A stretch of 64,000 nucleotides of DNA from Parcubacteria group bacterium (lineage in GTDB: Bacteria; Patescibacteriota; Minisyncoccia; Phycocordibacterales; UBA2135). Under the pieces are notes generated by a model, which had not been told where the DNA came from, ran no database searches, and saw only the letters and a list, made by a program, of their open reading frames with translations. Of the stretch, positions 27,013 to 53,705 are shown in pieces. The first letter of the stretch is position 1. Every line of letters starts with the position of its first letter. The stretch spans positions 24,981 to 88,980 of the forward strand of contig JACQLQ010000004.1 in the NCBI GenBank assembly GCA_016204045.1. The letters run 5' to 3'. The translations under genes and the position numbers were made by a program.

Positions 27013-27041
27013 GCCCCCGGTCGCACGAAGCGGCCGGGGGC
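27013..27041 (-). terminator. Terminator-like hairpin after the NYN gene (minus strand)
   Basis: 12-bp stem GCCCCCGGTCGC/GCGGCCGGGGGC (one mismatch), loop ACGAA. On the minus strand it is followed by TTGACTTTTGTC (a moderately T-rich run that is also the -35 of the next promoter). Confidence 0.45.
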
Positions 27042-27067
27042 ATAATTATGAAAATATAATCAGTTTT

Positions 27068-28321: not shown

Positions 28322-28368
28322 TGGGCGGCCTCACTTTCTTGTTTAGGTTCGGCTAGGGTTCTTTCGCG

Positions 28369-28396
28369 ATTATGACAGATTTAGCTTATTAGTCAA
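28369..28396 (-). promoter_or_regulatory. Promoter-like site for the NYN gene: TTGACT-16 nt-CATAAT (minus strand)
   Basis: Minus-strand TTGACTAATAAGCTAAATCTGTCATAAT lies 45 nt upstream of the ATG at 28321 and immediately after the dacA-like stop at 28416. Confidence 0.4.
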
Positions 28397-28415
28397 CCTC
28401 GTTATTTGATGCCCC

Positions 28416-38234: not shown

Positions 38235-40151
38235 TTACTCTTTTTTGTTCGTGTCGCCCCCTTCACTGCCACCTTCACCTCCTTCGCCAGCGTCGTACTC
38301 TGCGTCGCGAGTGCCATCTTCGGGAGCAGCCTGGGGACCCTTGGTAGAGCCATTACCCGCCATAGATTCGCCGATTTTCTGGAGTGAGGTGTTCAGATCT
38401 TCGACGGCCTTCTTGAGCGTCTCGGTGTTGTCCCCTTCAAGGGCCTTTTTCACGTCACCGATCTTGCTCTCGACATCCGTCTTAACCTCCGCTGGAACTT
38501 TGTCGCCATAATCCCTGATTGCTTTTTCGGCAGTGTATACCAATGTTTCCGCGGCATTTCGCACTTCTGCAAGCAAGCGCTTCTTCTCATCTTCAGAAGC
38601 ATGAGCCTCCGCCTCTTTCTTCATCCGCTCCACATCTTCATCTTTAATATTGGCGCTCGCCTCAATACGAATCGATTGTTCCTTGCCGCTTGCTTTGTCG
38701 CGGGCCTTCACCGTCAAAATCCCGTTCGCATTGATATCAAAGATTACCTCGACTTGGGGGATACCGCGCGGAGATGGCGGAATGCCGTCCAGAATAAACT
38801 TACCGAGGGTCTTGTTATCAGCAGCCATCGGACGCTCACCCTGCACCACATGCACCTCTACTGATGTCTGGTTGTCAGCGGCTGTTGAGAATGTTTGCTT
38901 CCGCTCCGTTGGAATAGTGGTGTTGCGCTCTATAACCTTAGTTGCAACACCTCCAAGCGTCTCAATCCCAAGTGAGAGCGGGGTCACATCCAAAAGCAGG
39001 ATGTCTTTTACGTCGCCCTGGAGAATGCCAGCCTGAATTGCGGCACCGGCGGCAACCACTTCGTCCGGGTTAATGCTCTTGTTTGGCTCTTTTCCAAATA
39101 ACTCCTTAACCGCACGAACAATCGCCGGCATGCGGGTTTGACCACCCACCAAAATCACTTCCTCGATTTCGGCGTACGTAAACTTTGATACCTCCATGGC
39201 ACGCTTCGTTATCTCAATAGACTTTGAGATGTAGGATTCGGCAAGCGCTTCGAGCTTGGCCCGTGATAGCTTGGTCACGAGGTGCTTAGGTCCATTCTGG
39301 TCCGAGGTGATAAACGGAAGGTTGATCTCAGCTTCCATCACTTCTGAAAGCTCGTGTTTCGCCTTCTCTGCCGCTTCTTTAAGGCGCTGGAGTGCCAATG
39401 GGTCCTTTGAGATATCAATACCGTTTTCCTTTTTAAACTCCCCTGCGAGATGGCGTACTATCTCACGGTCAATATCTTCTCCACCCATGTGACTATCCCC
39501 ATCAGTCGCCTTAACCTCTATGACTTCGTCCCCCACCTCAAGGACGGTAATATCAAAGGTTCCTCCACCAAAATCATACACTGCGATCTTTTCGTTTTTC
39601 TTTTTTTGAAAACCATAAGCAAGGGCCGCCGCTGTTGGCTCGTTTAAGATACGCCGCACATTGAAACCAGCGATCTCTCCGGCAACTTTAGTCGCCTTGC
39701 GCTGTGAGTCATCGAAATAGGCGGGCACGGTGATGACCACCTCGGTTATCTTCTCGCCGAGTTTTGCTTCCGCGTCACGCTTAAGCTTCTGCAAGATGAC
39801 CGCAGAGATTTCTTCCGGGGTGTGACGCTTGTCACCCATTGTAACTTTGACGCCTTCCGCATCCCCTTTGATTACCTCAAAGGAGACTTCCCCTTTTTCT
39901 TTTTGGATAGTAGGGTCTAGGAAGCGGTGCCCCATAAACCGCTTAATACCCGTAACTGTGTTTTGCGGGTTTGTTACTGATTGCCTTTTTGCGACAAGGC
40001 CGACAAGCCGCTCACCGTTCTTTGCGACAGCAACAACAGACGGGGTTGTCCGCCCGCCTTCAGCATTCTCTATAATTTTTGGTGTACCACCCTCGACGAT
40101 AGCCATCGCTGAGTTTGTGGTACCGAGATCAATTCCGAGTATTTTTGGCAT
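38235..40151 (-). CDS. dnaK: Molecular chaperone DnaK (Hsp70)
   Basis: 638 aa. [27 protein letters not shown], acidic C-terminus. Confidence 0.95.
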
Positions 40152-40171
40152 ATAGATTAGAATTTTGAAAT

Positions 40172-40735
40172 TTAGCTTGCTTTGTATTTTGCTACCTTGA
40201 CCCGTGCGGGGCGGAGGACGCGACCATGGAGTGTATACCCTCTTTGCGTCACTTCCACTATCTTTCCATCATCCTCTTCGTTGTTGGTTTGAACGGTCTC
40301 AATCGACTCGTGTCTCGTGGGATCAAAGTGTGCACCTTCGGGATGTATCTCTAGTATACTATTACTCTTCAAAACACCGATGAGTTGCGTATAAATGTAT
40401 TCGACGCCCGCTCGCCAGCCCTTATCTGCCTTTTCCCAAGCCTCTTTGTTCCGAAAAGCAAGTTCAAAACTGTCTACAACTGGGAGTATTTGCGAGAGGA
40501 TGTCTTCTTTTACAAACTCCCGGAGTGTCTTGCGCGATTCCTCTTCAGCTTTGCGTGCATTGATGAAGTCGGCTTTTGCCCTCTGCCAGCCGTCGAGGTA
40601 CTCTTGTCGTTCCTTTTCGCACTCGAGAAGCTTTTCACGAAGCTTCTTTTCTTTATCACGAAAAGAACTCTCACCTTCGTCGTTGGTTTCTTCAAGCTGG
40701 ATATCATCGGCGTTTGTGTCTCTGTTGTCAGGCAT
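40172..40735 (-). CDS. grpE: Nucleotide exchange factor GrpE
   Basis: GrpE coiled coil plus beta-domain. Start set to the ATG (MPDNRDTN). The ORF-track GTG start at 40768 would run into the upstream inverted-repeat element. Confidence 0.85.
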
Positions 40736-40742
40736 AGATGAG

Positions 40743-40862
40743 TCCCGTACGAAATAGGACACGGACACGTGCTGACTTCAATCCACAATTGTTATCTCTA
40801 TTAACAATAGATGGCGATGCCGTGTCGGTGTTTTTTGAAAGTGTCCGTGATTTCGTACGGGA
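40743..40862. repeat. Inverted-repeat element copy 1 (outer arms TCCCGTACGAAAT/ATTTCGTACGGGA, inner arms AGGACACGGACAC/GTGTCCGTG, about 73-nt spacer)
   Basis: Read from the sequence. The spacer contains the palindrome TTGTTA-N7-TAACAA. It lies 8 nt upstream of the grpE ATG. Confidence 0.6.
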
Positions 40863-40986
40863 TGAGAATATTATATGATAAGTTTAAAAAACGTCAAACC
40901 CCGATACCAAAAACCCCCGCGGGGGTTTTGAGAAATGAGGGTTGGTGTGCCACTTCCGATTACGGCGGACTGTTTCAAGACATTGA

Positions 40987-41421
40987 TTAGGTTACGTCTT
41001 CCTCTTTCCCGTCTTTTTCCACAATTCTCACCTTAGCGGGTCCCCCTCCCTCCGCGTCGTCTAATTCAAATCTAAGTTTTGTGCCGTCACTTGTGGTAAT
41101 TTTCATACTACCGAAAATATCGACAGCGGTAATTGTTTGACCCACCAGCGGAGACAGTTTTTTCTCAATTTGATCACCTTGCGTCAACAGCTCTGCTTGT
41201 CCGCCTTTTTCTGCAAACTGCATCCCAGTCCCATATTCGATGTCATTGAGGTCAATTTTGAATTTTCTGCCATCGCCTGTAGTAATGACTAGCTCATCTC
41301 CTAGTCCTTCAAGTTTGATATCTGAAATCGTTTGGCCCACAAACAGGTCTAATTTGTTTTCTGGGCTTTCGTGTGCGTCTGATCCCTCTTCCTCTCCCGG
41401 CGAAGCTGATTCAAATGACAT
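40987..41421 (-). CDS. Hypothetical acidic protein with two internal about 40-aa repeats
   Basis: 144 aa. Repeats LFVGQTISDIKLEG...ITTGDGRKFKIDLNDIE and PLVGQTITAVDIFG...ITTSDGTKLRFELDDAE. Confidence 0.4.
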   Translation of the reverse strand: MSFESASPGEEEGSDAHESPENKLDLFVGQTISDIKLEGLGDELVITTGDGRKFKIDLNDIEYGTGMQFAEKGGQAELLTQGDQIEKKLSPLVGQTITAVDIFGSMKITTSDGTKLRFELDDAEGGGPAKVRIVEKDGKEEDVT

Positions 41422-41477
41422 ATTTTTGCTTCTACAATTTAATAAGCGGAGTTGACTTATCTAGTGCTCATAAATGA

Positions 41478-41930
41478 TTAACGCTTGCTCCACTGCGGCG
41501 CCTTTCTTGCTTTCTTCAAACCAAACTTCCTGCGCTCTTTCTCGCGCTGATCGCGAGAAAGGAATTTTGACTTCTTGAGCTTGCCGCGCCATTCGCTGTC
41601 ATATTCCACAAGAGCGCGAGATAATCCGTGACGAAGCGCTTCCGCCTGGGCATGAATACCACCGCCCGAAACGTGAGCGCTGACATCAAATTTGCCTACT
41701 ACCTTAACCTTCTGAAATGCTTCGTTGATGATCTGCTGCATTTCTTCTGTCTGAAAGTAAGCAACAGCGTCTTTGTTATTAACACTGAAAACGCGCTTTG
41801 CGCCAACACCTTCAAAGATACGCACACGAGCAGTGGCAGTCTTGCGACGGCCTACTGTCTCAATGTATCGCCCCTTAGGCAATTTTGGGATCGAGGCGAC
41901 TTCGGTATTCTGTTGTTCGGTCGTAACCAT
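41478..41930 (-). CDS. rpsI: 30S ribosomal protein S9
   Basis: GRRKTATARVRI..., C-terminal GLKKARKAPQWSKR. Confidence 0.9.
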   Translation of the reverse strand: MVTTEQQNTEVASIPKLPKGRYIETVGRRKTATARVRIFEGVGAKRVFSVNNKDAVAYFQTEEMQQIINEAFQKVKVVGKFDVSAHVSGGGIHAQAEALRHGLSRALVEYDSEWRGKLKKSKFLSRDQREKERRKFGLKKARKAPQWSKR

Positions 41931-41969
41931 AATATAAATGTGATTCCAAATAGTGTACTTCTTTTGGGA

Positions 41970-42314
41970 TTATTCTACCACCTTGAGCCTTTTCATCCGT
42001 TCGTTGCGAAGACGGTTTGCTGGCAACATACCATATACCGCGTGCCTAATCGGCTCTTCGATACCATGACGCTCAATGACCTTCTCAAGCGGCCGTTCCT
42101 TCAAGCCTCCGTGGTAACCCGTGTAGTGTTTATAGATTTTTCCTTTCTGCTTTGTAAGAGGGATAAAGAGGGCATTTGCATTGATGATCTCAACTTCCAC
42201 ATCAAGAACGCGGTTTTTGACAAAGTCGACTCGCGACTTCCCAATGAGCAAAGCCGCTGCCGCCGAAGCGACACGACCGATTTTCTTTCCTTTTGCATCT
42301 ATGGTGTATTTCAT
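41970..42314 (-). CDS. rplM: 50S ribosomal protein L13
   Basis: Start trimmed to MKYTIDAKGKKIGRVAS... Strongly L13-like (HYTGYHGG, MLPANRL). Confidence 0.9.
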   Translation of the reverse strand: MKYTIDAKGKKIGRVASAAAALLIGKSRVDFVKNRVLDVEVEIINANALFIPLTKQKGKIYKHYTGYHGGLKERPLEKVIERHGIEEPIRHAVYGMLPANRLRNERMKRLKVVE

Positions 42315-42339
42315 AGCGTTTAGGGTATACAAGTACCGC

Positions 42340-42693
42340 TTAGATGAACTCAATTACCGCCATTGCACTCCCGTCTCCGAGACGACGAGGCAGTTTGGTA
42401 ATCCTTGTGTAACCACCTTTGCGATCAGTGTATTTGGGGGCAATTTCTTTAAAAAGCTTCCCACCGCTCACCTTGTCGCCTCCAAGGCGTGAAATGATGA
42501 GGCGGCTTTGAGCGAGCGTACCATGTTTCCCTTGCGTAACCAACTTCTCTACAAAAGGCCTTAATTCTTTTGCGCGCGCTTCAGTTGTGCGAATCTTGCC
42601 CTTTTTGATAAGGGAAGAAGCGAGCGAGCGCAAAAGAGCGCGCCTTTGGTTTCTTTCTCTTCCGAATTTTCTGTTTTTGTTGTGGTGTCTCAC
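42340..42693 (-). CDS. rplQ: 50S ribosomal protein L17
   Basis: 117 aa. MRHHNKNRKFGRERNQRRALLRSLASSLI... Confidence 0.9.
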   Translation of the reverse strand: MRHHNKNRKFGRERNQRRALLRSLASSLIKKGKIRTTEARAKELRPFVEKLVTQGKHGTLAQSRLIISRLGGDKVSGGKLFKEIAPKYTDRKGGYTRITKLPRRLGDGSAMAVIEFI

Positions 42694-42712
42694 GGTTACA
42701 ATCGCTTCTCGA

Positions 42713-43678
42713 CTATTTTAAAGTAATTCCAAAATTAGACAAGGTTCGCTTCACTTCTTGCACCCCCTTCTCACCAAGCCCATCGAGTTCCAGGAGATCC
42801 TTTTCGGTCTTTCTCGCGAGACCTCCCACTGTGCGAATATTTGCCTTAGTGAGTGCGTTTACCGTCCGAGTACCGAAACCAAGCGTGTCGATGCGTGTTT
42901 TCAAAAACTCTTTTTCCTCCTCCGCCCGCTTCACCTCAACCCCCCCCTCGCCTTCCTCGCCATCTTCTTTTGCCACCTCCGCCTTGGACTCTTCTTCCTG
43001 GAAACCGACGATGGCCTTCAACTGCTTAATCATGATGGAAATCGATGCCTCTAAGGCCTCGCGCGGAGAAATACTCCCGTCTGTTTCAATCGAAATACGA
43101 AGACGATTATAGTCTGTTCGTTCACCGACACGCATGTTTTCTACTTCATAGTTAACGCGACGTATCGGAGAGAACACGGCATCAAGTGCGATAGTGCCGC
43201 GCTCTACTTTTTCTTTTTGATGTACTTCTTTGGGAACGTAGCCCAATCCTTTTTCGAGGCGGATAGTAACTTCAAGTGTAGTGCTCTTGTTGGTAATCTC
43301 GGCAATATACGCTTCTGGGTTTAGAACCTCTACCTGGCCGGGCGCCTCAATATCGGCGGCAGTTACCACCTTAGCGCCCTTCACCTTAATCCGCACCTCT
43401 TGCGATTCATCGGTCGCCATTCTGAAGTTCACTTTGCGTATGTTTAAGAGTAGCGCAATGACGTCCTCCTTTACTCCTGATATCGTTGAAAACTCGTGCG
43501 CAACACCCTCAATCTTCAGAGAAGTAATTGCTGTGCCGACGAGTGACGACAATACTATGCGACGGAGTGAGTTCCCGAGGGTGTGCCCATAACCAGGGTA
43601 AAGCCCCTCAATCTCATAAACACCGTGCGCGCCCTCTTCTTTCACTACCTTTGGTTTTGTTGGGAGGATGATCTCCAT
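42713..43678 (-). CDS. rpoA: DNA-directed RNA polymerase subunit alpha
   Basis: 321 aa. N-terminal dimerisation domain (GHTLGNSLRRIVLSSL), C-terminal domain with HhH (LGLSTRTVNALTKANIRTVGGL). Confidence 0.93.
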   Translation of the reverse strand: MEIILPTKPKVVKEEGAHGVYEIEGLYPGYGHTLGNSLRRIVLSSLVGTAITSLKIEGVAHEFSTISGVKEDVIALLLNIRKVNFRMATDESQEVRIKVKGAKVVTAADIEAPGQVEVLNPEAYIAEITNKSTTLEVTIRLEKGLGYVPKEVHQKEKVERGTIALDAVFSPIRRVNYEVENMRVGERTDYNRLRISIETDGSISPREALEASISIMIKQLKAIVGFQEEESKAEVAKEDGEEGEGGVEVKRAEEEKEFLKTRIDTLGFGTRTVNALTKANIRTVGGLARKTEKDLLELDGLGEKGVQEVKRTLSNFGITLK

Positions 43679-43758
43679 AAGCGTTTAGCGTTAAGCGTTT
43701 AGCTCTTAGGACCTGTTGTTCATGCCTAATTGCTAGACGCTAACCGCTTAAATTAAAA

Positions 43759-44364
43759 TTAACGACTATAAAATTCGATAATCGAAGTTATATTAAATAC
43801 CATTTCTTGCTGTTTGTCAATTGCTGGTGCTCCCTTAACGACCGCCCCGAATGTTTCTGTACGGGAAAGCCATTGAGGTGGGGTGTGATCCTTGATTCGT
43901 TCAGCAAGGGTCAAAAAGAGGCTCTTGTCACGACTTTGAAGCCGGATAGCAATCCTGTCTCCCGGCCGCACGCTGTACGAAGGGATCGAAACCTTTCGAT
44001 CGTTAACCATAATGTGCCCATGCGACACAAGCTGTCGCCCAAGAGCACGACTCTGTGCAAATCCGAGTCGGAAGACCGTATTATCCAAACGGCTTTCGAG
44101 CAAGCGATACAATTCTTGCGCTGGGTTTGACCCTTTCTTGGCTGACGCCTTCTTTACATAATTCCCAAACTGTCGCTCTCGAACACCATAATAATAGCGC
44201 GCCTTTTGTTTTTCCAAAAGTTGCGTACCAAACTCTGTGAGCGGCTGGGTGCGGTGCTTCCTGGTCCTCATCTTTGGAGTAATAACAAACTTCGGATTTT
44301 CCGTTTTTGGGAAGACGCGAGCACCGAGCCTCCTTGCGATTTTGAATTGTTTGAGTTTAGGCAT
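43759..44364 (-). CDS. rpsD: 30S ribosomal protein S4
   Basis: 201 aa. S4 domain RLDNTVFRLGFAQSRALGRQLVSHGHIMVNDRKVSIPSY. Confidence 0.92.
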   Translation of the reverse strand: MPKLKQFKIARRLGARVFPKTENPKFVITPKMRTRKHRTQPLTEFGTQLLEKQKARYYYGVRERQFGNYVKKASAKKGSNPAQELYRLLESRLDNTVFRLGFAQSRALGRQLVSHGHIMVNDRKVSIPSYSVRPGDRIAIRLQSRDKSLFLTLAERIKDHTPPQWLSRTETFGAVVKGAPAIDKQQEMVFNITSIIEFYSR

Positions 44365-44375
44365 GATGTAAATGA

Positions 44376-44810
44376 CTATACCCTTCTTGGTTTAGGTGCA
44401 CGAGGGCCATTAAAGGGCCGCGGTGTTTCGTCGCGAATTGAGTGGAGTTCAATGCCCTTACCCGAAAAGGCGCGCAACGCCGCTTCGCGGCCGGCACCAA
44501 CACCGCGCACAACCACATCCGCGCTTTGCATACCCAACAATTGCGCTTGCTCCCCGACGAGCTCACCAACCTTTGCCGCGGCGTAGGGTGTCCCCTTCCT
44601 GGTTCCACCGAAGCCAAGGCTTCCACTCGATGACCACAGAACAGCGCGCCCGTCCTTGTCTGTAACAAGAAGCTTCGTGTTGTTATACGTTGCCTGAATA
44701 TGGAGGATGCCGTGCGGAACCTTCCGTTTGCTCCCCCTAGCAAGAGAACGGGCCCGCATCTCTGCGTTGTATCCCGCTCCGCCTTTTTGTGCTGTACGCT
44801 TTTTTCCCAT
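44376..44810 (-). CDS. rpsK: 30S ribosomal protein S11
   Basis: The ORF-track 226-aa ORF has an about 82-codon spurious N-extension with a GTG start. The core from MGKKRTAQKGG... to the C-terminus is canonical S11. Confidence 0.9.
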   Translation of the reverse strand: MGKKRTAQKGGAGYNAEMRARSLARGSKRKVPHGILHIQATYNNTKLLVTDKDGRAVLWSSSGSLGFGGTRKGTPYAAAKVGELVGEQAQLLGMQSADVVVRGVGAGREAALRAFSGKGIELHSIRDETPRPFNGPRAPKPRRV

Positions 44811-45076
44811 GCCAAAAATTAAGGAATGAATGTTGTAATGAATGACTAAAATTTTTGAGCACCCAGCACTTATTTTGCCTCCAACTATCCCGCGCGGTGC
44901 GGCTGCCGAATAGGCAGACCCCTCTTTGCGCGAAGCGCTGCGCCCCTTGAGGGATGCGGCTGTCCGCCGCTCGCGCTTCGCACAATGGTTCGGTGCAAAA
45001 TAAGTGCTGGGTAAAGGTTTGGCAGTCGCCATTTCTACCTCCCAAAAGAGGGGCACAAATGGCGAGCCAATTCGCT

Positions 45077-45457
45077 TTATTTCTTCTCCAACTTGCGCTT
45101 ACCAGAGCTCATGGTCTTGCGGACGTTCCCGCGCACAGTTCTCGAGTTCACTTTGGTACGTTGACCGTGGACAGGAAGGCGGCGCATGTGACGTATACCT
45201 CGGTAACTCTTGATATCCTTGAGCCGTTTTATATTTGCACCAACGAGACGCCGAAGTTCACCTTCGACGGTCATTCCTTCGATCAGCTGACGGATTTTGT
45301 TCTCCTGGTCCGCTGTTAACTCTGTTGGCTTCGCGTTTAGGGAAACTTTTGCCTCACCCAAAATGCGCCTTGCTTGAGCACGCCCAACTCCATAGACGGC
45401 GGTGAGTCCGATCTCAAGTTGTTTTTTTTCTGGGATGTTGATTCCTGCGATACGCAT
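45077..45457 (-). CDS. rpsM: 30S ribosomal protein S13
   Basis: 126 aa. MRIAGINIPEKKQLEIGLTAVYGVGRAQAR... Confidence 0.92.
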   Translation of the reverse strand: MRIAGINIPEKKQLEIGLTAVYGVGRAQARRILGEAKVSLNAKPTELTADQENKIRQLIEGMTVEGELRRLVGANIKRLKDIKSYRGIRHMRRLPVHGQRTKVNSRTVRGNVRKTMSSGKRKLEKK

Positions 45458-45509
45458 AGCTCAGTACTTCGATTATAAATGGATGCAATTGTATGCTGTA
45501 TAAAAAATA

Positions 45510-45623
45510 TTACCCTTGACGCTGTTTATGCTTCGGATTCTTGCAAATAACATACAGCCGGCGTTTCCGACGTACAATCTTGCAGTTTGAACAAATCGTT
45601 TTGATTGATGCTTTAACTTTCAT
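45510..45623 (-). CDS. rpmJ: 50S ribosomal protein L36 (37 aa, absent from ORF track because under 60 aa)
   Basis: Manual minus-strand translation [37 protein letters not shown]. It sits between infA and rpsM as in the canonical operon. Confidence 0.8.
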
Positions 45624-45636
45624 TTTGTTTTCGGAA

Positions 45637-45659
45637 GTGTCCGTGATTTCGCACGGGAT
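45637..45659. repeat. Inverted-repeat element copy 2 (right half only: GTGTCCGTGATTTCGCACGGGAT)
   Basis: Nearly identical (about 30/32 nt with flanks) to the right half of copy 1. It lies 14 nt upstream of the rpmJ ATG. A degenerate left-arm-like stretch falls inside the rpmJ coding sequence. Confidence 0.45.
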
Positions 45660-45668
45660 TCATGCGGT

Positions 45669-45908
45669 CTACAGCCGTCTCGTAATCCGTCCCTTCCCCC
45701 CGTATGGGTCGAGCTCTAACTCAACTCGGTCGCCAACAAGGACTTTAATCCGATACATTCGCATTTTGCCGGCAAGATACGCGAGTATTTCTCCGCCTTC
45801 TCCTCCTGGTGTGGCACCTGGTGAAGCATCCAAAGCAACGCGAAAAAACGCATTAGGAAGGGCTTCTGTGATTACCCCCATCGCCTTTGGGACATTCTTA
45901 GCTTTCAT
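45669..45908 (-). CDS. infA: Translation initiation factor IF-1 (with short Gly/Pro-rich insertion)
   Basis: 79 aa. S1-like OB fold (GVITEALPNAFFRV...GKMRMYRIKVLVGDRVELELDPY). Confidence 0.85.
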   Translation of the reverse strand: MKAKNVPKAMGVITEALPNAFFRVALDASPGATPGGEGGEILAYLAGKMRMYRIKVLVGDRVELELDPYGGKGRITRRL

Positions 45909-45974
45909 TTAATACGTACTACCCCACCCGGAGGGTAGGGTTTGTGCGACGTTTTATAATAACAAAGGGGGGGG

Positions 45975-47471
45975 CTAATAGTCAAGCGTGCTTTTAACAT
46001 CTATGTCTTGGGGGTTTTCTGGAAACTCCCCCTTCCAGAAGGGCCTGACCATAACTTCGGCCTTTATAACGCCCGAAAACTGACCCATGGCGTTTTTCAG
46101 GCTGTCTTTTGAACGGCCAGTAAGCGCTTCCTTAATCTTCTCGCTATCGAATTTCCAGACAAATTCTGGTTCACCCTTAAGCGAGAACGTAAGATGTGTG
46201 TCTTCCGCAGGATTGAAAGTATCTTTGTTTGCTATGGCAAACGCAAGTGTCGCTACGTTCGCAATTTCAATATCCTCCTCTTCCGTTAATTGCGGGAGTA
46301 GTTTACCGCCGAGGTAGGAGAAAAATGCCTCCCGAGGGAAAAGGATGCCGTAGAGTTTTCCTTCTTCGCGCACAACAACAGTGCGTTCGCTTACTTCAGA
46401 TTCTGCGCTCTTTAACGAGGGAGAAAATTTGATCAGTACTCCTTCGTCAAAAAGAATAAAGTCCGCGGGTTTCTCGGCAATCGCTTTTTCTACTAATTGC
46501 TTTTTGAGCGCACTGCGAAGCTCTTCTCGTATCTTTGTTTCTTCATCCTCCGCAATCGTCTTTACCGCGCCACTAAAGCCACCCTCAAGCGCAGTCGATG
46601 ATCGCGCATAAAATGCGGTATACCTAGGCGTCCCCTTAAAGCCGGGAACGGTAAACTCGGTTTTCTCAATATTGTATCGTTCCCCCGGCAAATCCGCGTG
46701 CACTGTTACTTCCACGCTACCTGGCACCAATGTTCCATCGACCTTGCTTTGACCTGGCACGACGACGGATTCGTAAATCCGATACACAAGCCCGCCCGCG
46801 GCTTCAAAACGGGTGTTGCGTATCAGTCGCTGTTCAGCACTGCTGTAGTTGTTGAAAATGGTGATTTTCCCCGACGCGCGGCGCTCGATGTTTTTCATTT
46901 CTGTTGCATTGACCTGTCGTTCGAGTGCCAAAGAGAGCTGCATCACCTCAAACGCAAGCGCGCCTTTTTCTCCTGGCTTAAGACCGCGCTCTGCGGCAAA
47001 GACGGCATTGAGTGCCATACTCTTTGTGCGTGGGGTGATGATGACCGTTGCGCTCTCAAAAAGCGTCGCAACAGAAAGAATGAGAAAGAGGACCGAGAGA
47101 GATGCCGCCCCCCACAACACGCCTCTTGAGTACCGACGTGGCGCGCCAGGTACTTTCATGGAAAACCCGGGGTGGAGTCCCGCTTCCGCTACTTTTGGAG
47201 TTTCCTTTCGCGCCTCCGGAGCTTTTACCTCCGCAGAAGCTCGATGCTCTTCAGACTTTCCCAATACGGTAGTCGATTTCAGTTCCCCCTCTGTCGTGTT
47301 TTTGGGTGAACGTTCAAATCTTGCGAATAATTTTGACTTCTTTTTGGTTAGAAAGCTATCTCGGGCGGGTAGGCTCCCGGATGGTTCTTTGATGCGGATG
47401 TCATTTATCTTTTTTCGCGGCATACGTGAGGATAGAGATATCCTAAGTATACCATATTTTTCGTGTGTCAA
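45975..47471 (-). CDS. Hypothetical membrane-anchored protein (ORF-track start is TTG; ATG at MPRKKIND about 47423 is the likely start)
   Basis: One TM (LWGAASLSVLFLILSVATLF), then a large extracytoplasmic domain with no recognisable motifs. Confidence 0.45.
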   Translation of the reverse strand: MTHEKYGILRISLSSRMPRKKINDIRIKEPSGSLPARDSFLTKKKSKLFARFERSPKNTTEGELKSTTVLGKSEEHRASAEVKAPEARKETPKVAEAGLHPGFSMKVPGAPRRYSRGVLWGAASLSVLFLILSVATLFESATVIITPRTKSMALNAVFAAERGLKPGEKGALAFEVMQLSLALERQVNATEMKNIERRASGKITIFNNYSSAEQRLIRNTRFEAAGGLVYRIYESVVVPGQSKVDGTLVPGSVEVTVHADLPGERYNIEKTEFTVPGFKGTPRYTAFYARSSTALEGGFSGAVKTIAEDEETKIREELRSALKKQLVEKAIAEKPADFILFDEGVLIKFSPSLKSAESEVSERTVVVREEGKLYGILFPREAFFSYLGGKLLPQLTEEEDIEIANVATLAFAIANKDTFNPAEDTHLTFSLKGEPEFVWKFDSEKIKEALTGRSKDSLKNAMGQFSGVIKAEVMVRPFWKGEFPENPQDIDVKSTLDY

Positions 47472-47588
47472 TCCCGTACGAAGTCGCGAACGCCCCCGTT
47501 CAAGTCAATGAAGTCCGCGGGTTTTTGTTAGGAACGCACCCCTTTTGCCAAGTATCTGCCTCCGTTCGCGTTCTACTTCGTACGGGAT
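47471..47588. repeat. Inverted-repeat element copy 3 (outer arms ATCCCGTACGAAGT/ACTTCGTACGGGAT, inner arms CGCGAACG/CGTTCGCG, about 70-nt spacer)
   Basis: Read from the sequence. It lies between the 398-aa gene stop and the 498-aa gene start. Confidence 0.6.
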
Positions 47589-47604
47589 CAACCCCCGCTC
47601 TCAA

Positions 47605-48801
47605 TTACACGAGGAAGACGGCTCGATCTGCAAAGATGGTTTCGGTGGTTAGGAAGGTGTCATCTTCACGGGGATTAGTAAGTTCAATGTGTGGTGCAAG
47701 TACTTCCCCGGAAAGAACATGGACAGGTACGCCACTATCAGCAAACACCGTCCCCAAAAGTGCCTCCTTAGCCAAGATTGTCTTGAGCCATCCAGCAAAT
47801 GCTGGATCCGCAGAGACAAATATCCCCTGCAGGAGAAAGGGTACGGGTGAAATAGAGGCAAGCGCCTTCCGTATCGCACGTAACAGCACGTCCTCTCGGT
47901 TTTTGACCAACGTTAAGATCCCAGAAGAAACATCTCGAGAGCTTTTACCGGTGAGTACGAGGGAAAGCAGTGATCTTGCCTCAGTCGCAGAGATGTTCTT
48001 TGCTTTCATGACGTCGCGCACAAAGATATTGGTGCCCATCGGAAATGAAAGCACGTCACGGAGCGCCCCGTCTGCGACGAGTCCGATCTCCACCACCTCA
48101 CCGCTCATGCGTACAAGGAGAGAATCGTCCACTTGGGGCCACAAATCGCGCACTCCCGCAAAGAGGGCAAACAGGTGGGAATGAAACGTTATCGGGGCGT
48201 TATGAAAAACGTGCGCGTACCCTTCGCGGATAATGCGGACGACATACTCTGGAGCGAGAGAAAGGTAGAGTGAGAGCGAAAGTTCTGTCCCGCGCTTTCC
48301 TTTTGGTGATACAACGGGATATCCGTTGACGGCTGCGCGCATAACATGTTTCTCGAGCAGCGTGACACTTTCCTTCCCAAAAGCTTTTTCACGAAAGCTC
48401 TCTGCCTCTTTGTCGAGAGATTGCTCCATTATTTCATCAGTAACAGTAAAGGGCTGGTCACGTTTTATCGTAATCGTCTTGGTGGCGATCGCATGCCAGG
48501 GCGCTCCGAGAACACAAACCACCTCGTCGGGTATGGTCCGCGCATATTCTCTGGGCACACGGAGCATCCCCTGTGTGGCAGTATCCTGCAGTACGGCCGT
48601 AAGCGTTGTCCCCATCCCGGCAAAAAATTTCTCAAAGTGGAGCGTGCTCTGAAACGGCATCTCCTTTCTTTTTGTGTAAAAGATGGTTGGTTTCCCGTCT
48701 TTGCGCAAGAGTGCAAGCGCGACTCCGATAGAAGCGCTCCCCACATCTATAATGACAGCGAGTCTTTCTGTCTTGCTACCCCAGGAGGAGAAGATTCCCA
48801 T
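47605..48801 (-). CDS. Actin-like ATPase superfamily protein (FtsA/PilM-like)
   Basis: 398 aa. N-terminal phosphate-1-like AVIIDVGSASIGVAL, later VRMSGEVVEIGLVADGAL. The assignment is weak. Confidence 0.4.
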   Translation of the reverse strand: MGIFSSWGSKTERLAVIIDVGSASIGVALALLRKDGKPTIFYTKRKEMPFQSTLHFEKFFAGMGTTLTAVLQDTATQGMLRVPREYARTIPDEVVCVLGAPWHAIATKTITIKRDQPFTVTDEIMEQSLDKEAESFREKAFGKESVTLLEKHVMRAAVNGYPVVSPKGKRGTELSLSLYLSLAPEYVVRIIREGYAHVFHNAPITFHSHLFALFAGVRDLWPQVDDSLLVRMSGEVVEIGLVADGALRDVLSFPMGTNIFVRDVMKAKNISATEARSLLSLVLTGKSSRDVSSGILTLVKNREDVLLRAIRKALASISPVPFLLQGIFVSADPAFAGWLKTILAKEALLGTVFADSGVPVHVLSGEVLAPHIELTNPREDDTFLTTETIFADRAVFLV

Positions 48802-48853
48802 GTTGGTATTGTAGCATGGACAGACCTTGTTCGCGTTTTATATTTGTGGAAAA

Positions 48854-48882
48854 TTGACTGGTTATTGAGGAGGTGCTATAGA
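48854..48882 (+). promoter_or_regulatory. Promoter TTGACT-17 nt-TATAGA for the 48891 gene
   Basis: Hexamers with 17-nt spacing ending 9 nt before the ATG. Confidence 0.4.
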
Positions 48883-48890
48883 GACTGGAG

Positions 48891-49337
48891 ATGTGTGCTG
48901 CGGGGTTTCGCACGATGTCTGAAATCGAAGCGTATGATGGCGACGTATTTGAAGTCGGCGTACCGCCCCATGAAAAGACTGAGACCATCATTATTTACCT
49001 CGGAATGCTCTCGCGATTCAAAAAGCTTAAGCGGGTGCAGTCGTTGCCCCGAAGCGCAATAATGCGGGCAGCCGCAGAGTTCAGGAAGAAACTGCCGCTT
49101 GATAGCCAATTTTCAGAGGAGGCACTTCATCAAATGGGTTCGGAGGTGATGGGGACTGCCCTAGAGCTTTTGAGCCATGAAGACGACATCAAACCGGAAG
49201 AGGCGGTTGAGGCTAAGCCGGATCCCACCTATCTCATCAGGCTACTCGACAATGAAGAGGCTATCGCAGATGTGCTTCTCGCAGCCGTAGAGATGACTCA
49301 AGTAACTAAGATTAAAACGGAGAAGGGAGCAGAGTAG
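48891..49337 (+). CDS. Hypothetical acidic protein (only plus-strand gene in this region)
   Basis: 148 aa, no recognisable domain. Flanked by its own promoter and a bidirectional terminator. Confidence 0.4.
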   Translation: MCAAGFRTMSEIEAYDGDVFEVGVPPHEKTETIIIYLGMLSRFKKLKRVQSLPRSAIMRAAAEFRKKLPLDSQFSEEALHQMGSEVMGTALELLSHEDDIKPEEAVEAKPDPTYLIRLLDNEEAIADVLLAAVEMTQVTKIKTEKGAE

Positions 49338-49366
49338 ACAAAAACCGCCATGACAGCGGTTTTTTT
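49338..49366. terminator. Bidirectional intrinsic terminator (convergent 148-aa gene and prfA)
   Basis: AAAAACCGC-CATGACA-GCGGTTTTTTT. The T-tract abuts and overlaps the prfA stop codon. Confidence 0.7.
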
Positions 49367-50321
49367 AGAGTTCGTTTGTAGCCTCTTTCCCAAACGCATT
49401 CACAATGTCATCAATCTCACCCGCCATAATCCGCTCAATCCCGTGCCAGGACTCTTTGATGCGGTGGTCAGTGACACGATCCTGGGGGAAGTTGTACGTC
49501 CTGATCTTTTCCGAACGATCTGCGCGGCCGATCTGTTCTTTTCGAGTTTGTGCCATCGCTGTTGCCGCCTTTTCCTCTTCAGCTTCCGCTATTTTCGCCG
49601 CAAGAACACTCATGGCACGCTCACGGTTCTTCTGTTGGCTCCGCTCTGCGGTTGCGCGTACAACAACGCCGGAGGGTTTGTGGAGGACACGGACTGCGGT
49701 TTCTACCTTGTTCACATTCTGCCCCCCAGGGCCACCCGCCCGCGAAAAAGTCACCTCAATATCGGCTGGATTGATTTGAACATCGGACGTCTTTCGAATC
49801 GGGAGAACAGCAACCGAAGCAGTCGAGGTGTGGATACGCCCCTGTTTCTCGGTGTCCGGAATACGCTGTACGCGGTGTACGCCTGTCTCAAATTTAAGTG
49901 CGTCATATACTCCTAGCCCCTTTATTTCAAAAGACGCCTCTTTGTAACCCCCGAGTTCAGACTGTGATTCATCAATTTTCGTGAAGCTCCAACCTTTCTT
50001 CGTGGCATATCGTCCGTACATCTCTGCAAGCTCAAACGCAAAGAGCGACGCCTCGTCGCCTCCTGCGCCAGCACGCACTTCCAAAATGACCTCCCTTGGG
50101 GATGCCTCTTCTTCTTTGTCTGATGCGAGTATCTCTTCCATTTGCTTTGAGAGAGCGCTCTTCTGTCCGGCAATTCGTGTGCGTTCATCTTCGGCCAATT
50201 CCTTCATGGACGGATCGTCTTCCGCCATGTGGACGAGGTTTGCCTCTTCCTCATCGAGCTTTTCGTACATCTCTGCGAGATATCGGGTTTTTTGGTTTTT
50301 CTTGTATCCTTCAAGATCCAT
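49365..50321 (-). CDS. prfA: Peptide chain release factor 1 (short form)
   Basis: 318 aa. GGQ motif ([16 protein letters not shown]). The tripeptide region [14 protein letters not shown] is PxT-type rather than SPF. No in-frame TGA or frameshift context. Confidence 0.75.
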
Positions 50322-50323
50322 AA

Positions 50324-51283
50324 TTAATAAGTAGATAGTATCTCCATTACTTCGTCAAACTCCTTACCGACACTTTGCGAATCAAGCTCCCCCTTTCTCG
50401 CGTGCGTCCAAAGTCCCCAGATGAGGTTCGAGACGGCGCGCTCTTTCATGCGCTCCCCAACAAGCGTCTCAAACTCTTCGCGCGGCATTTTTATTGGATA
50501 TGCCTCAAGCATTTTTCCTTTTATGACTTCGAAATCGTTCCTACTCTTAATCGACGTGAGGAACACAGCGAGCATAAAAGCGGGGTCGCCGTATGAGACC
50601 TGCTCCCAATTAAGAAAACGGAAACCGTCAGAGGTTTTCAGGAGGTGTCCAATATGCGCGCTTTCAAAGATAAACGTCTCTCCATAATTGTTTATTGTTT
50701 TCTCCAGGCGTGGTTCAAACGCATCAAGCATTCTCTCTGCTTGCGGCAACAATTCATCCGCAATACGTGTACTCCACACCGCTGCCCGCGATTCCTCTGC
50801 GGCGACGAGAAGTCGCGCTTTCCACGTTTTGCGATTTCTCTCGTAGCTCTTCATCGGTTCCTCAAAAAATGCGGCGCCCTTTTTAACTGGGATGCGGGCA
50901 ATGTTCGAGAAGAACCGCGCGATTGATGCCGCATCGTCATAGATATTGCCGATACTTTCCCCTTTCACATACTCCTCGAGAAGCGCGCTTTCTCCAAAGA
51001 AGTCACCGGTCGAGTAGAGCGGCCGAGGAGCGACGGTGTACGGCTCGACATACGTGAGCACTTCATATTCAGTCCTAGTACCACGTTTCTGGTCACCCCA
51101 TTCCGGACCCTTGAAACGGAGCACCATCCGCTCCACCCCCACTTCAAGCAAAAAGTTGAAGTGTCCCGAATAGGGCTTGGGGTCGATGTCCGTAATACGA
51201 AACTCACCTTTTGCAAATGAACCCAGAGGGTCGTTTGAGCGGAGCCATTTGGATATCTCTTCAATACTAGGGGCCTTCTGCAT
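50324..51283 (-). CDS. Phosphotransferase (APH/choline-kinase-like protein-kinase fold) family protein
   Basis: 319 aa. Catalytic loop-like [20 protein letters not shown] and [10 protein letters not shown] (Brenner/D-x-x-x-x-N-like motifs). Confidence 0.5.
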
Positions 51284-51298
51284 TCTCTGATTGTACCA

Positions 51299-51372
51299 AT
51301 CCCGTTAGAAGTAGGGAATCATGAACATCTTAATTGCAACCAACTTTTGATTCCCGCGACTTCTAATGGGAT
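51299..51372. repeat. Inverted-repeat element copy 4 (outer arms ATCCCGTTAGAAGT/ACTTCTAATGGGAT, inner arms AGGGAATCA/TGATTCCC, 26-nt spacer)
   Basis: Read from the sequence. It lies 15 nt upstream of the 51283 ATG, directly after the rpmE terminator. Confidence 0.55.
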
Positions 51373-51403
51373 AACAAAAACCGCGAGGGTTGGTCCTACG
51401 CGG
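51373..51403 (-). terminator. Terminator-like hairpin of rpmE (overlaps its stop codon)
   Basis: CCGCG...CGCGG stem (5 bp, 13-nt loop) with an A-tract on the plus strand, hence a U-tract in the minus-strand RNA. The structure is weak. Confidence 0.4.
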
Positions 51404-51650
51404 CTTTTGTCTTCTTTGCTTTTGGTTTGGTTGTCTGCTTCTTTTCCTCTGCAGAGCGTCTCTTTGCCCTGAACTTTTCTACACGGCCGGCGGTGTCGAG
51501 AATCTTCTCTTGGCCGGTATAAAACGGGTGACATTCCGAGCAAATTTCGACATCAATCTTTTCCTTGGTTGAGCCCACTGCGAAAGAGTTACCGCAAACG
51601 CAGGTTGCTTTGGCACCAGGATAATATTGGGGGTGAATTTCCTTCTTCAT
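51396..51650 (-). CDS. rpmE: 50S ribosomal protein L31
   Basis: 84 aa. [10 protein letters not shown]...CVCGNSF...[10 protein letters not shown] zinc-ribbon L31 type A. Confidence 0.9.
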
Positions 51651-51687
51651 AGTAGATATTATGATATACCAGATGCTAGTTATTTTT

Positions 51688-53019
51688 TCAAGACCCCGCC
51701 AAAATATCTATTTGTTTTTGGTACTTCGTCGCGAGGCCCATAACGTCATCACCGTAAAACGCATAAGCGGCTTTCTTGGCGTTGTTCCATCCGGCAAAGT
51801 AGCGGAGTGCTGCCAATCGCTCTGCGTCATATGTCCCCTTTCCGGCACCGTTGTCCTTTAAGAGAAGAGCGGCAGCAAGGAATGCGTGTTTCGGATCCCA
51901 CGGATTTGCGATTTCGACACCGGCAATAGAGGCAACTTGTTTTTCCACAAGGACCCATGTCGAAGGAATGAATTGCGCCGGACCCATTGCCCCGCCCCAT
52001 CCATACCAGGGCTTCGCGGATACGGGCATCCTGTCTGGGTCAAAGCCAAGACGTCGAGTTATCTCCTCGAAGATCGGTCTGTCACGAGTCGGGTGCATAT
52101 CGGTCTTCCAGTTTCCCGTGCCAACGTTTTCACCAAGATTAGACTCTTCGGCGATGACACCGAGAATGAGTGCTGTGCGAATGCCCGTCTTTTGAGATGC
52201 GAAGTTGGCAAGTTCGAGTGCCCGTTCAAAGGGAATTGCGTCCGAACCACGGAGTTGGAAGAGTTCGCTTCGGATTACGGCCGCATCCCTCTCTGTTGCC
52301 GCGACAACGCGGGCATATATCTCCTCATGCCCTTTAGTTATGTCGAGAAGGCGCTTCTTCTCCGCCTTACCCTCAACGATACGACGCTTCTGCAGTTCCT
52401 GGATTTGCCGGAGCTCTTGCTCTTCGGTGCGCTTTTCGGCGAGGGTATCGCGTTCGCGCTTGGTTGTTTGTTTGGTAGATTCTATTTCCTGAAAGGAGGC
52501 GTGGAGGGAGCGATTAATCGAAGCAAACGCGTCAAGGTCATGGAAAAAATCGGAAACATTTTGGTTTGCAAAGACCACTTCAACCACGGTCACCGAATCG
52601 AGTTCGTGAGTCTTCCTGATAAGTTCGGCGAGCGAGTCCTTTTCGCGTTCTAACTTGGCAGACAAATCCCCTATCGTTGCTTCCTTGCCATTGATGTCGC
52701 TCGAGAGACGGCGAATTACGAGATCTCGTTGCCGTATGGAAAGCTCGGCGGCCTCAATCTGCGCATCCAAAATGGCAACATCTCGTTCGAGAGAAACGGT
52801 CTTGCGTTGTTGTTCTCGCAAGATCTCGCGCTGGCGCTCAATCTCTGCTTCGAGCTTCACGAGCTCGCTCTCTAGTTCCGCTCTGCGCTCGAGGACGTCC
52901 GCCCCTGTTGCTTGCCCCAATACGGGCAAAGCCCACCCTGCGGTGAGCACAACAATAAATGACGAGACTATAAGTTTGGAGAAAGGAGACAATGTTACCA
53001 TTGTACCACACCGTAACAC
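51688..53019 (-). CDS. Coiled-coil protein with C-terminal lytic transglycosylase (MltB/Slt-like) domain
   Basis: 443 aa. TM/signal, about 250 aa heptad repeats, C-terminal [16 protein letters not shown] and ...DNGAGKG... motifs. Confidence 0.6.
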
Positions 53020-53024: not shown

Positions 53025-53705
53025 TTATTTCTTCTCTTGCTTCTTTTCTTTAGGAGCTTCTTCGCCGGGGATTTCCTCCTCTTCTTTCTTGCCCTTCTCT
53101 TCTACTTCAATCTTCGATGCGTCGAACTCTGCCGGTGCTACCTCTTCTTCTTTCGCCACGGCAATTGCGGCAATAATCTCTTCAGGGCCTGTCACAAGCT
53201 CAATACCGGCCGGCAATGCGATATCTCTTGCGGCAATACGGCTTTCAAGTGTTGCGAGTGGAGCAATGTCGACGACAATTTCTTGCGGAAGATCTTTTGG
53301 AAGACCGCGAACTTCGAGTTCGTAGAGCACTTTAACAAGTGTGCCTCCCAACTCTTTAACGGCTACCGATTCTCCCGTAAATTCGATCGGGACCTTCACT
53401 TCAACAGCGCGGTCTGCCTCAATAGCATAAAAATCAACGTGCGTCGGCTGGCCACGTACAGGGTCGCGTGAAATATCTTGAATGAGAACATCCTTATTCC
53501 CTCCGTCATTGAATACGAGGCGGATAATCGAAGACTCGCCGTCCATGTTCAACACGCGCCCAAAGTCGGTTGCTTCTATAAAGACAGGGGTGGACTTCTC
53601 TTTGCGTCCGTAAAAAACAGCCGGGATTTTACCCGTTTTTCGAAGTTTATTGACCTTTCTGCCGAGAATATCGCGCTTTTCGGCCTTGAGTTCTAGCGTT
53701 TGCAT
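53025..53705 (-). CDS. rplY: 50S ribosomal protein L25 / general stress protein Ctc
   Basis: 226 aa. The N-terminal L25 beta-barrel (LELKAEKRDILGRKVNKLRKTGKIPAVFYG) plus an acidic C-terminal extension. Confidence 0.88.
   Translation of the reverse strand: MQTLELKAEKRDILGRKVNKLRKTGKIPAVFYGRKEKSTPVFIEATDFGRVLNMDGESSIIRLVFNDGGNKDVLIQDISRDPVRGQPTHVDFYAIEADRAVEVKVPIEFTGESVAVKELGGTLVKVLYELEVRGLPKDLPQEIVVDIAPLATLESRIAARDIALPAGIELVTGPEEIIAAIAVAKEEEVAPAEFDASKIEVEEKGKKEEEEIPGEEAPKEKKQEKK

Follow-up and report, generated by a model that had tools for sequence, protein, structure and literature searches.

We examined a stretch of 64,000 nucleotides (64 kb; hereafter the window) from a metagenome-assembled genome (MAG) of the Parcubacteria (GCA_016204045.1, contig JACQLQ010000004.1), where a first-pass annotation made from the sequence alone had reported a family of inverted repeats with conserved outer arms, each in intergenic DNA just upstream of a minus-strand gene start. 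The window contains three complete copies and one truncated copy of a palindromic element, and arm matches and sequence place all four where they had been reported: upstream of grpE, of rpmJ, of a gene for a protein of 482/498 amino acids and of an APH-family gene (Pfam APH). The complete copies are 72-120 nt long. For comparison we used L122 (GCA_016204005.1), a sister genome with a GrpE 81% identical to that of the window and collinear with it over 20.5 kb. The copies and the features that adjoin them are as follows.

40739..40742: left target-site duplication of copy 1, TGAG on the plus strand (CTCA in gene sense), a direct repeat
40743..40862, minus strand: copy 1, complete, 120 nt, in gene sense; supported by sequence, fold and both half-profiles, and absent from L122
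40743-40755 and 40850-40862, plus-strand coordinates: outer arms of copy 1, with an inner stem of 40760-40768 paired with 40841-40849
40756-40759, plus strand: bulge of copy 1, AGGA (TCCT on the sense strand)
40863..40866: right target-site duplication of copy 1, TGAG, a direct repeat
40870..40897, minus strand: sigma-70-type promoter of grpE-dnaK, TTGACG-16 nt-TATAAT, with 11/12 matches the best promoter-like site of the region
45624..45658, minus strand: copy 2, truncated, the first 35 nt of a copy-1-type element; supported by sequence, with a match to the 5' half-profile only
47468..47471: left target-site duplication of copy 3, TCAA on the plus strand (TTGA in gene sense), a direct repeat
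47472..47587, plus strand: copy 3, complete, 116 nt, in the orientation opposite to the flanking genes; supported by sequence, fold and both half-profiles
47472-47484 and 47575-47587: outer arms of copy 3, with an inner stem of 47485-47492 paired with 47563-47570 and a bulge TTCT at 47571-47574
47588..47591: right target-site duplication of copy 3, TCAA, a direct repeat
51300..51371, minus strand: copy 4, complete, 72 nt, in gene sense, with TTAG-type arms; supported by sequence, fold and half-profiles
51300-51312 and 51359-51371: outer arms of copy 4 (one A·C mismatch on the sense strand), with an inner stem of 51314-51321 paired with 51348-51355

The 14-nt arm ATCCCGTWMGAARW has seven matches with at most one mismatch in the window, namely both arms of the loci at 40743-40862, 47472-47587 and 51300-51371 and a single arm at 45646-45659. 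At up to two mismatches we found 16 matches against 5.35 expected, a number that none of 100 shuffles reached; the additional matches (e.g. at 59166 and 63266) are solitary within coding sequence and look like chance. The paired-arm pattern is restricted to the three complete loci, with 0.00 expected in shuffles, and half-profile searches detected no further copies in the 64-kb window. According to the half-profiles, copies 1, 2 and 4 are oriented on the minus strand and copy 3 on the plus strand. When folded in gene sense, the complete copies form strong hairpins, with -44.5 kcal/mol for copy 1 (z -5.25), -59.4 for copy 3 (z -5.4) and -29.6 for copy 4 (z -2.7), and their inner arms, as originally noted, differ between copies yet are complementary within each. 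Copy 2 has no fold. It had been taken for a right half nearly identical to copy 1 and is indeed a half copy of the copy-1 type, but it represents the 5' 35 nt in gene sense, consisting of the 5' arm, the 5' inner arm and ~13 nt more, and joins the rpmJ ATG (45623-45621) directly.

Using the paired-arm pattern (two nearly intact arms, 41-101 nt apart), we scanned species-representative genomes and listed at least 120 loci, nearly all of them in MAGs of the Patescibacteria (candidate phyla radiation, CPR), with ~16 chance matches estimated from the information content of the pattern. MAG labels are given as deposited. The lineages listed include Nomura-, Kaiser-, Yanofsky-, Jorgensen-, Taylor-, Vogel-, Moran-, Doudna- and Kerfeldbacteria, Levyibacteriota, Kazan and Parcubacteria RAAC4_OD1_1. 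The few matches in GC-rich Actinomycetes, Lysinibacillus, Bacteroidales and Hydrogenedentota look like chance. Carriage by phages was rejected, as only three matches were found among 2.9 million viral contigs.

Comparison of these copies defines the element as TCCCG...CGGGA. The outer arms described initially are present, but their outermost A/T belongs to a flanking 4-nt direct repeat (TGAG for copy 1, TCAA for copy 3). The ends are perfect terminal inverted repeats (TIRs) of 13 bp, TCCCGT(TA/AC)GAARY ... RYTTC(TA/GT)ACGGGA; the outer arms of the 113 copies located on start codons (see below) give 1444 Watson-Crick cells against 25 others. The commonest arm outside the window is TCCCGTTAGAA(A/G)(T/C), the TTAG type, which is also the form of window copy 4, and copies 1-3 of the window carry a CGTACG variant that is altered on both arms. 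Across the family the element measures 65-131 nt with a bimodal distribution (65-81 and 100-124 nt), and its interior is AT-rich or GC-rich, tracking the host genome. Many copies have an inner stem of 7-9 bp, offset from the outer helix by a 4-nt bulge WYCT (ACCT, TCCT or ATCT) on the 3' side, with no bulge on the 5' side; an inner stem of at least 6 bp is present in 42 of 113 oriented copies, compared with 12 in a mix-and-match control. The element is short and lacks a transposase open reading frame (ORF), and is thus of the size of a miniature inverted-repeat transposable element (MITE).

Several lines of evidence indicate that these elements have moved. An exact 4-nt direct repeat flanks 91 of 149 copies (61%), compared with 13.6 for shuffled flank pairs, and a repeat of at least 3 nt flanks 106 of the 149 (18.2 for shuffled flank pairs). 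The duplicated tetranucleotides are mostly of a T..A type, represented by TGAA/TTCA (47), TGGA/TCCA (13), TGAG/CTCA (12) and TTGA/TCAA (7). The syntenic 20.5 kb of L122 contains no copy of the element, so all four window copies are missing from the sister genome at the compared locations. The site of copy 3 is there a clean, single-copy empty site, GGGGTTGCCACACTAAAAATATGGTATACT, where the window has GGGGGTTGA, the 116 nt of the element and TTGACACACGAAAAATATGGTATACT; L122 has one TTGCCA, followed by the same ...AAAAATATGGTATACT. At the site of copy 1, removal of the element and one repeat from the window leaves both genomes with TTTGACG, a -10 box and 10 nt to the ATG. The position of copy 4 in L122 has only CAA between the same flanks, and that of copy 2 an unrelated 80-nt spacer. 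Likewise, the corresponding start codon is free of the element in orthologues of murG, rplI, lysS, ppa and further genes, both at other loci and in the window. Within genomes, copies resemble each other along their whole length as paralogs do (two in L033, two in L100 and five in L101 and L119, which belong to one MAG).

Every MITE feature that we looked for was found, apart from a known autonomous partner. We therefore regard the elements as very probably non-autonomous, MITE-like palindromic mobile DNA that is widespread in Patescibacteria. The first description had offered either a stem under selection, as an RNA element of the 5' untranslated region (UTR) or a DNA cruciform, or a small family of MITE-like or repetitive extragenic palindromic (REP)-like repeats. 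TIRs, 4-bp duplications, empty sites and paralogous copies support a MITE-like family, and the REP-like alternative does not stand, since REPs come without target duplication.

A number of observations weigh against mobility as the whole explanation. About 30% of all copies have no clean duplication, window copy 4 among them, and in a short subclass TCCCG is immediately preceded by a conserved (T)AC(T/C)TG, of which the right flank repeats no more than TG. No arm pair at a spacing like that of an insertion sequence (IS) was found in ~0.9 Mb of loci, and no transposase domain, including Y1 transposase, among ten window ORFs tested against Pfam. The 13-bp arms are identical over very divergent CPR lineages, which is more conservation than is usual for a purely selfish MITE. 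The share of copies on start codons lies far above the few percent of tolerated T..A sites that we would roughly estimate, without formal computation, to fall there, and the near-exclusive sense orientation is unexpected for a symmetric TIR transposon inserting at random, with the proviso that orientation relative to genes is possibly confounded with replication direction. Finally, the sample itself is biased, because the requirement for two nearly intact arms under-samples decayed, shorter and longer copies.

The first-pass annotation had restricted the element to intergenic DNA. This does not apply to the family, which elsewhere occupies start codons and the interior of genes. In 113 of the 149 copies (76%), the last A of the element and the TG of the downstream repeat form the ATG that opens an ORF of at least 60 codons, on exactly one strand and never on both (gene calls are from a crude longest-ORF procedure). 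In 71 of these 113 the upstream duplicate is also an ATG, giving the layout ATGNN-element-TGNN. The element ends in A, and therefore insertion at A/TGNN rebuilds an ATG at its 3' foot. The genes downstream are unrelated housekeeping genes, including topA, mreB, ruvC, dnaA, dnaJ, clpP, ppa, efp, pgk, secG, tig and aminoacyl-tRNA synthetases, as well as those for ribosomal proteins L4, L9, L15, L24, L29, L35 and S21, with four copies within one ribosomal-protein operon. The names of these genes were read from N-terminal sequences; for several of them, tblastn aligned the protein from its first residue with element-free orthologues, in support of the name.

A direct test for ORFs that run through the element identified five GC-rich copies of 68-74 nt (~3% of sampled copies) that are in frame and free of stops inside rsmH, gatB, uvrC, pepA and a glycosyltransferase gene. 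The Pfam domains MraW, GatB, UvrC, Peptidase_M17 and GT2 continue on both sides of the respective copies. Together with 4 nt of duplication these elements measure 72, 75 or 78 nt; their arms encode PVRS...SNG, and the inserted segment is 24-26 residues long (xPVRS...SNGx). Removal in the manner of an intron was considered and is unnecessary, because the copies are open frames whose length plus four is a multiple of three. The other 29 of the 149 copies (19%) are intergenic, and several of these lie in TTGA/CA -35 boxes, like window copy 3.

We read these distributions as follows. Insertion duplicates 4 bp of the target, usually a T..A-type site such as TGAA, TGGA or TTGA, and since an ATG is rebuilt, the copies that survive are concentrated on start codons (76%). 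Insertions there in sense orientation would be tolerable if ribosomes melt the hairpin and restart at the AUG of the gene. Stop-free copies whose length plus four is divisible by three survive in frame within genes (3%), and the remaining copies are found in promoter-proximal intergenic DNA. The excess on start codons and the sense bias need an extra ingredient, for which targeting, positive selection and a deletion trap are candidates. A deletion trap would work in genomes under strong deletion pressure, where imprecise deletion could not remove copies that are fused to a start codon or a reading frame. One of the four window copies absent from the sister genome sits on a start codon, which fits survivorship, with n=4.

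In the window, copy 1 lies between the -10 box and the ATG of grpE, where the box ends 7 nt before the element and the AUG follows 7 nt past the hairpin; by this spacing, the grpE-dnaK transcript should start at or beside the first base of the element and hence carry the 120-nt hairpin. The promoter is kept in L122 as TTTGACG...TACAAT. At copy 3, the left duplication and the next two bases make up the TTGACA -35 box of the promoter of the 482/498-aa gene, so that this copy split the box, which was restored via the duplication; the genes on either side both run antisense to it. The APH-family gene downstream of copy 4 has a TACAAT -10 box (51295-51290), which is separated from the element by 4 nt and ends 6 nt before the ATG. 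The repeats are thus not simply a 5' UTR motif, as had been suggested: only copy 1 has such a position, between a promoter and its ATG, whereas copy 3 is antisense in a -35 box and copy 4 lies upstream of a -10 box. Occlusion of translation initiation, processing and stabilisation, proposed in the same annotation, would be putative roles. Around copy 2 the order is ATGAA, TCCCGTGCGAAATCACGGACAC..., ATGAAAGTT, and the upstream ATGAA (45663-45659) duplicates the ATGAA with which rpmJ starts. By this layout copy 2 is an insertion on the start codon of rpmJ whose 3' ~80 nt were deleted afterwards. It retains only the first 35 nt of the element, and rpmJ therefore needs no hairpin.

Genes of the window genome are not preceded by Shine-Dalgarno (SD) sequences, and several TAnnnT-N6-7-ATG arrangements, typical of leaderless mRNAs, are present. 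We found no SD-like sequence upstream of the ~19 minus-strand genes examined between 38235 and 53705. A TAnnnT box 6-7 nt before the ATG was observed for several first genes, e.g. 47605-48801, 51396-51650, 53025-53705 and 50324-51283.

The compensatory change noticed between the window copies holds across the family. In an alignment of 40 copies with an inner stem, including window copies 1 and 3, 93.5% of the cells are paired, compared with 86% in shuffles and 33-42% with slid partners (the copies were selected for inner pairing, which inflates the percentage paired and does not inflate the compensatory changes). The outer helix is 99% paired, 13 of the 22 stem pairs are altered on both sides, and none of 500 shuffles matches the covariation observed. 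A separate alignment of the copy-1 subfamily has seven compensated pairs.

The two strands of the element are not equivalent, which symmetric TIRs alone would not predict. The WYCT bulge precedes the 3' arm in 46 gene-sense cases against 6 antisense, a CGGGA(T/A) motif ~22 nt from the 5' end is found in 32 sense against 3 antisense cases, and the sense strand is A-rich, with 38 G·U pairs against 17 A·C mismatches. In sense orientation the TTAG-type 3' arm reads UUC UAA CGGG AUG, which places a UAA 4 nt before the AUG of the gene. The frame that closes at this UAA is open for 18.4 codons, against 10.1 and 12.5 for the remaining sense frames (one of the frames compared is shortened by a conserved TGA in the inner arms of class A). 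Among 102 sequence clusters it is the longest frame in 56 (p = 8e-6), and an ATG lies within it in 45 of 108 copies, compared with 14-17 for controls. Frames that begin at the upstream ATG get to the stop of the 3' arm in 27 of 71 copies, compared with a baseline of 20% (p = 5e-4). Extension of the protein at its N-terminus by read-through from the upstream ATG was rejected, since 0 of 18 in-frame copies are open.

The sense-strand bias, the excess of G·U pairs and the open UAA-ending frame hint at a role of the element at the RNA level. The element may be transcribed with the gene and form a flush-ended hairpin in hosts that, lacking SD sequences, would use leaderless or coupled starts. Ribosomes coming from the preceding cistron, or loading at the duplicate AUG upstream, would run into the hairpin and open it, terminate at the UAA in the 3' arm and restart 4 nt on at the AUG of the gene. 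We put this read-through and restart forward tentatively, as our best guess at a mechanism and as a possibility that falls well short of being probable. Three observations speak against it: 44 of the 71 frames from an upstream AUG stop early, the antisense control for frame openness is weak (18.8 versus 15.6 codons, p = 0.09), and the CGTACG arm variant of window copies 1-3 has no TAA.

A bolder proposal is that the element is a self-spreading start-codon cassette on which Patescibacteria have come to depend. The element would target, or be selectively kept at, the A/TGNN of starts, with its own last base rebuilding the AUG, and the conserved hairpin would organise SD-independent initiation, either through the UAA stop and restart or through cleavage at the hairpin foot, by which a leader cut off there would turn internal cistrons into leaderless mRNAs. 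Such dependence seems rather unlikely to us. If true, it would account for arms that do not vary across the phylum, for the strict sense orientation and for the position before essential genes.

The same features could be expected of a genuine cis-acting RNA leader, i.e. a conserved 5'-terminal hairpin recognised by a CPR-wide factor, with transposition secondary or the element domesticated. As variants, an endoribonuclease might trim the transcript to a leaderless mRNA starting at the AUG, or the hairpin might act as a stabilising or translation-control stem. A leader of this kind would agree with covarying stems, with more G·U than A·C on the sense strand, with the strong sense bias and sense-only interior motifs, and with a last hairpin base that is the A of the start codon in 76% of copies. 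It would also suit arms that are invariant over many candidate phyla, SD-less hosts rich in leaderless-type promoters, and copies that precede essential genes, four of them in one ribosomal-protein operon. Nevertheless, we consider it unlikely that a leader is what the element primarily is, given the target-site duplications and the empty sites in a close relative, which carries these genes, and is taken to express them, in the absence of the element. In the window, copies 3 (antisense) and 4 are not part of a 5' UTR, the truncated copy 2 before rpmJ has lost its hairpin, and some copies are in frame inside coding sequences. Moreover, the elements match no known Rfam family: there were no matches on them at the gathering threshold in the whole window and in 18 loci (135 kb), and none at E<=5 in window positions 40000-52000. 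No tRNA-like sequence or tmRNA was detected in the window either.

Movement as single-stranded hairpins by a single-copy, domesticated HUH transposase of the RAYT type (REP-associated tyrosine transposase), as in REP/REPIN systems (REPINs being hairpins of paired REPs), would account for short palindromic repeats that are numerous per genome, for paired inverted halves that form a long hairpin and for the lack of an IS-like partner nearby, and a host-maintained enzyme would suit the long-term conservation of the arms. We know of no HUH or RAYT-type movement that creates a target duplication, however, and a fixed 4-nt duplication is present in 61% of copies; in addition, the arms start with TCCCG and lack a conserved GTAG-type head, copies sit on start codons and in coding sequence rather than mainly at the 3' ends of genes, and the ten window ORFs tested include no Y1 transposase, all of which makes such a system very unlikely. 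Even less credible are protein-binding DNA sites, either operators of a global regulator or recombination sites of small invertible promoters (invertons). They could be imagined from the conserved inverted arms around AT-rich interiors with -10-like boxes, from the promoter-proximal positions in the window and from the one window copy that is reversed. Yet the -10-like boxes are equally frequent on both strands (144 versus 149), and some interiors are as short as ~40-46 nt, which is less than inversion by a recombinase would need. The genes downstream have no function in common, insertion is indicated by the direct repeats on the flanks and by the empty sites, some copies lie within coding sequences, and neither an operator nor an inverton model predicts covariation of the inner stem. 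The functional disparity of the downstream genes led us to reject a regulon or common operator, and an internal outward promoter was rejected as the cause of the sense bias, since not only the -10-like boxes but also the extended -10 boxes (20 versus 22) are balanced between strands. Intrinsic terminators were rejected too, as no T run follows the 3' arm on either strand of the window copies; the one hairpin picked out by the terminator scan, of 5 pairs and 14 nt (40759-40772), lies inside copy 1 and is not the stem of the element itself. There remains the concern that the arms are alike by chance around CGTACG palindromes, the core of window copies 1-3 being itself a palindrome. This explanation can be discarded, because the paired pattern has three loci in the window against 0.00 expected and at least 120 elsewhere, and the dominant TTAG/CTAA variant is not palindromic.

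Among the known systems that come close to these mobile palindromes are bacterial MITEs such as the Correia elements (CREE/NEMIS) of Neisseria and RUP of Streptococcus pneumoniae. These, too, are ~100 nt long without transposase coding capacity, have perfect TIRs, a fixed-length target duplication and many copies per genome, and insert beside genes to be co-transcribed as a hairpin. The element described here differs in its arm sequence, in a duplication of 4 variable bp rather than TA, in having no known partner IS, in the 76% of copies on start codons in one orientation, and in arms that are invariant across many candidate phyla. Membership in the Correia family was rejected: a Correia element has a 26-bp TIR of defined sequence and a TA duplication, whereas the TIR here is 13 bp, starts with TCCCGT and goes with a duplication of 4 bp. 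As for the origin of the ends, we presume that an IS1380/piggyBac-type element is a possible source, with its 4-bp, T..A-flavoured duplication and short repeats starting CC(C), although no such transposase was found among the ten window ORFs tested; the piggyBac end CCCTAGAAAG resembles (T)CCCGTTAGAAG.

Rickettsia palindromic elements (RPEs) are likewise palindromic, in frame and stop-free inside conserved protein genes and also intergenic. The host lineage of the CPR element is unrelated, only ~3% of its sampled copies lie in genes, and its 13-bp TIRs and 4-bp duplications are clear, so that the likeness is one of analogy and not of membership. A start-codon niche is, to our knowledge, not a described feature of RPEs. 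REP/REPIN sequences with RAYT resemble the element as short hairpin repeats, paired inverted, abundant and long-lived in a lineage. Unlike it, REPINs are found mainly downstream of genes, have a conserved GTAG-type head and produce no duplication of the target; the CPR element agrees with them in none of these points. Finally, translational bypass inserts (phage T4 gene 60 and the yeast mitochondrial 'byps') also place a hairpin insert between identical short sequences in a translated region, where essential genes tolerate it. In the CPR element, however, the duplicate is the start codon itself, the downstream AUG can be an ordinary start, the in-gene copies are plain open frames, and nothing indicates hopping. 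A literature search, in whose scope most subscription journals did not fall, found no published description of the arm sequence or of a MITE-like palindrome in CPR or Parcubacteria. What is new here is that an element with the ordinary build of a MITE occupies an unusual niche, namely start codons, in sense orientation, and that its ends are unusually conserved over many candidate phyla.

Patescibacteria make up a large share of bacterial diversity, and little is known of their gene expression. The family occupies or adjoins the starts of many of their housekeeping genes (dnaA, topA, mreB, aminoacyl-tRNA synthetases and ribosomal proteins), and a few copies are read as peptide inserts within conserved enzymes, so that start-codon calling and protein models are affected in thousands of MAGs. 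The absence of all four window copies from the sister genome also makes the element a marker of recent genome change, and its invariant 13-mer offers a handle for finding the enzyme that moves it. It further provides a testable case of a translation start beside a strong hairpin in bacteria without SD sequences, and prompts one to ask whether start codons themselves can be occupied by a mobile element, or have one recruited to them.

Several further arrangements were observed in the family. The copies at L018 1927-1992 and L019 4574-4679 are hybrids that combine one arm of the CGTACG type with one of the TTAG type; their outer helix contains two mismatches, and subfamilies may therefore have recombined. 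Nested or tandem arrangements are present at L090 1965-2134, L114 6199-7346 and L108 7264-7575, with an element within an element and clusters of arm pairs of 43-62 nt; elements may insert into one another or rearrange. The subclass with the ACYTG flank, found in L020, L028, L032, L044, L066 (4812), L074, L089, L098 and others, has neither the 4-nt duplication nor an upstream ATG. At orthologous start codons in L061 (~3584), L020 (~6167) and L007 (~3853) we detected 3' arms that are eroded or bear indels, e.g. GGGTCTCTAACGGAATG, GCTTCTAAACGGGATG and TTTTTAATGGGATG; therefore older copies exist that the strict pattern misses. A group I intron (Rfam, 57.8 bits) is located at L049 3154-3454, in a Parcubacteria locus that also holds a copy of the element.

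Some other features of the window deserve mention. Between rpsI and grpE, a 144-aa ORF without a Pfam match (40987-41421, minus strand) faces 216 non-coding nt without a called gene in L122, and a terminator-like hairpin AAAACCCCCGCGGGGGTTTT (~40910-40930) is kept in both genomes. Upstream of rpsM (45428-45518, minus strand) there is a weak match to Rfam Alpha_RBS (23.8 bits against a gathering threshold of 38, E = 0.045), in the expected place and below the threshold. The region 20000-28500 has a G+C content of 0.54-0.57, compared with ~0.48-0.51 elsewhere in the window; its long ORFs at 22790-24595, 26278-27045 and 27068-28321 have no Pfam match, and the ORF at 24750-26210 encodes a metallo-beta-lactamase/RMMBL (RNase J/CPSF-like) protein. 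At 2514-7844 (plus strand), a 1776-aa protein combines a Peptidase_S74 (endosialidase chaperone) domain with a bacterial Ig-like surface domain at its C-terminus; for so small a genome, this surface or tail-fibre-like protein is very large. Two adjoining, near-perfect hairpins at 15669-15759 (17-nt arms, 94% complementary, and 16-nt arms, 100% complementary) lie between convergent genes and are probably bidirectional terminators unrelated to the element family.

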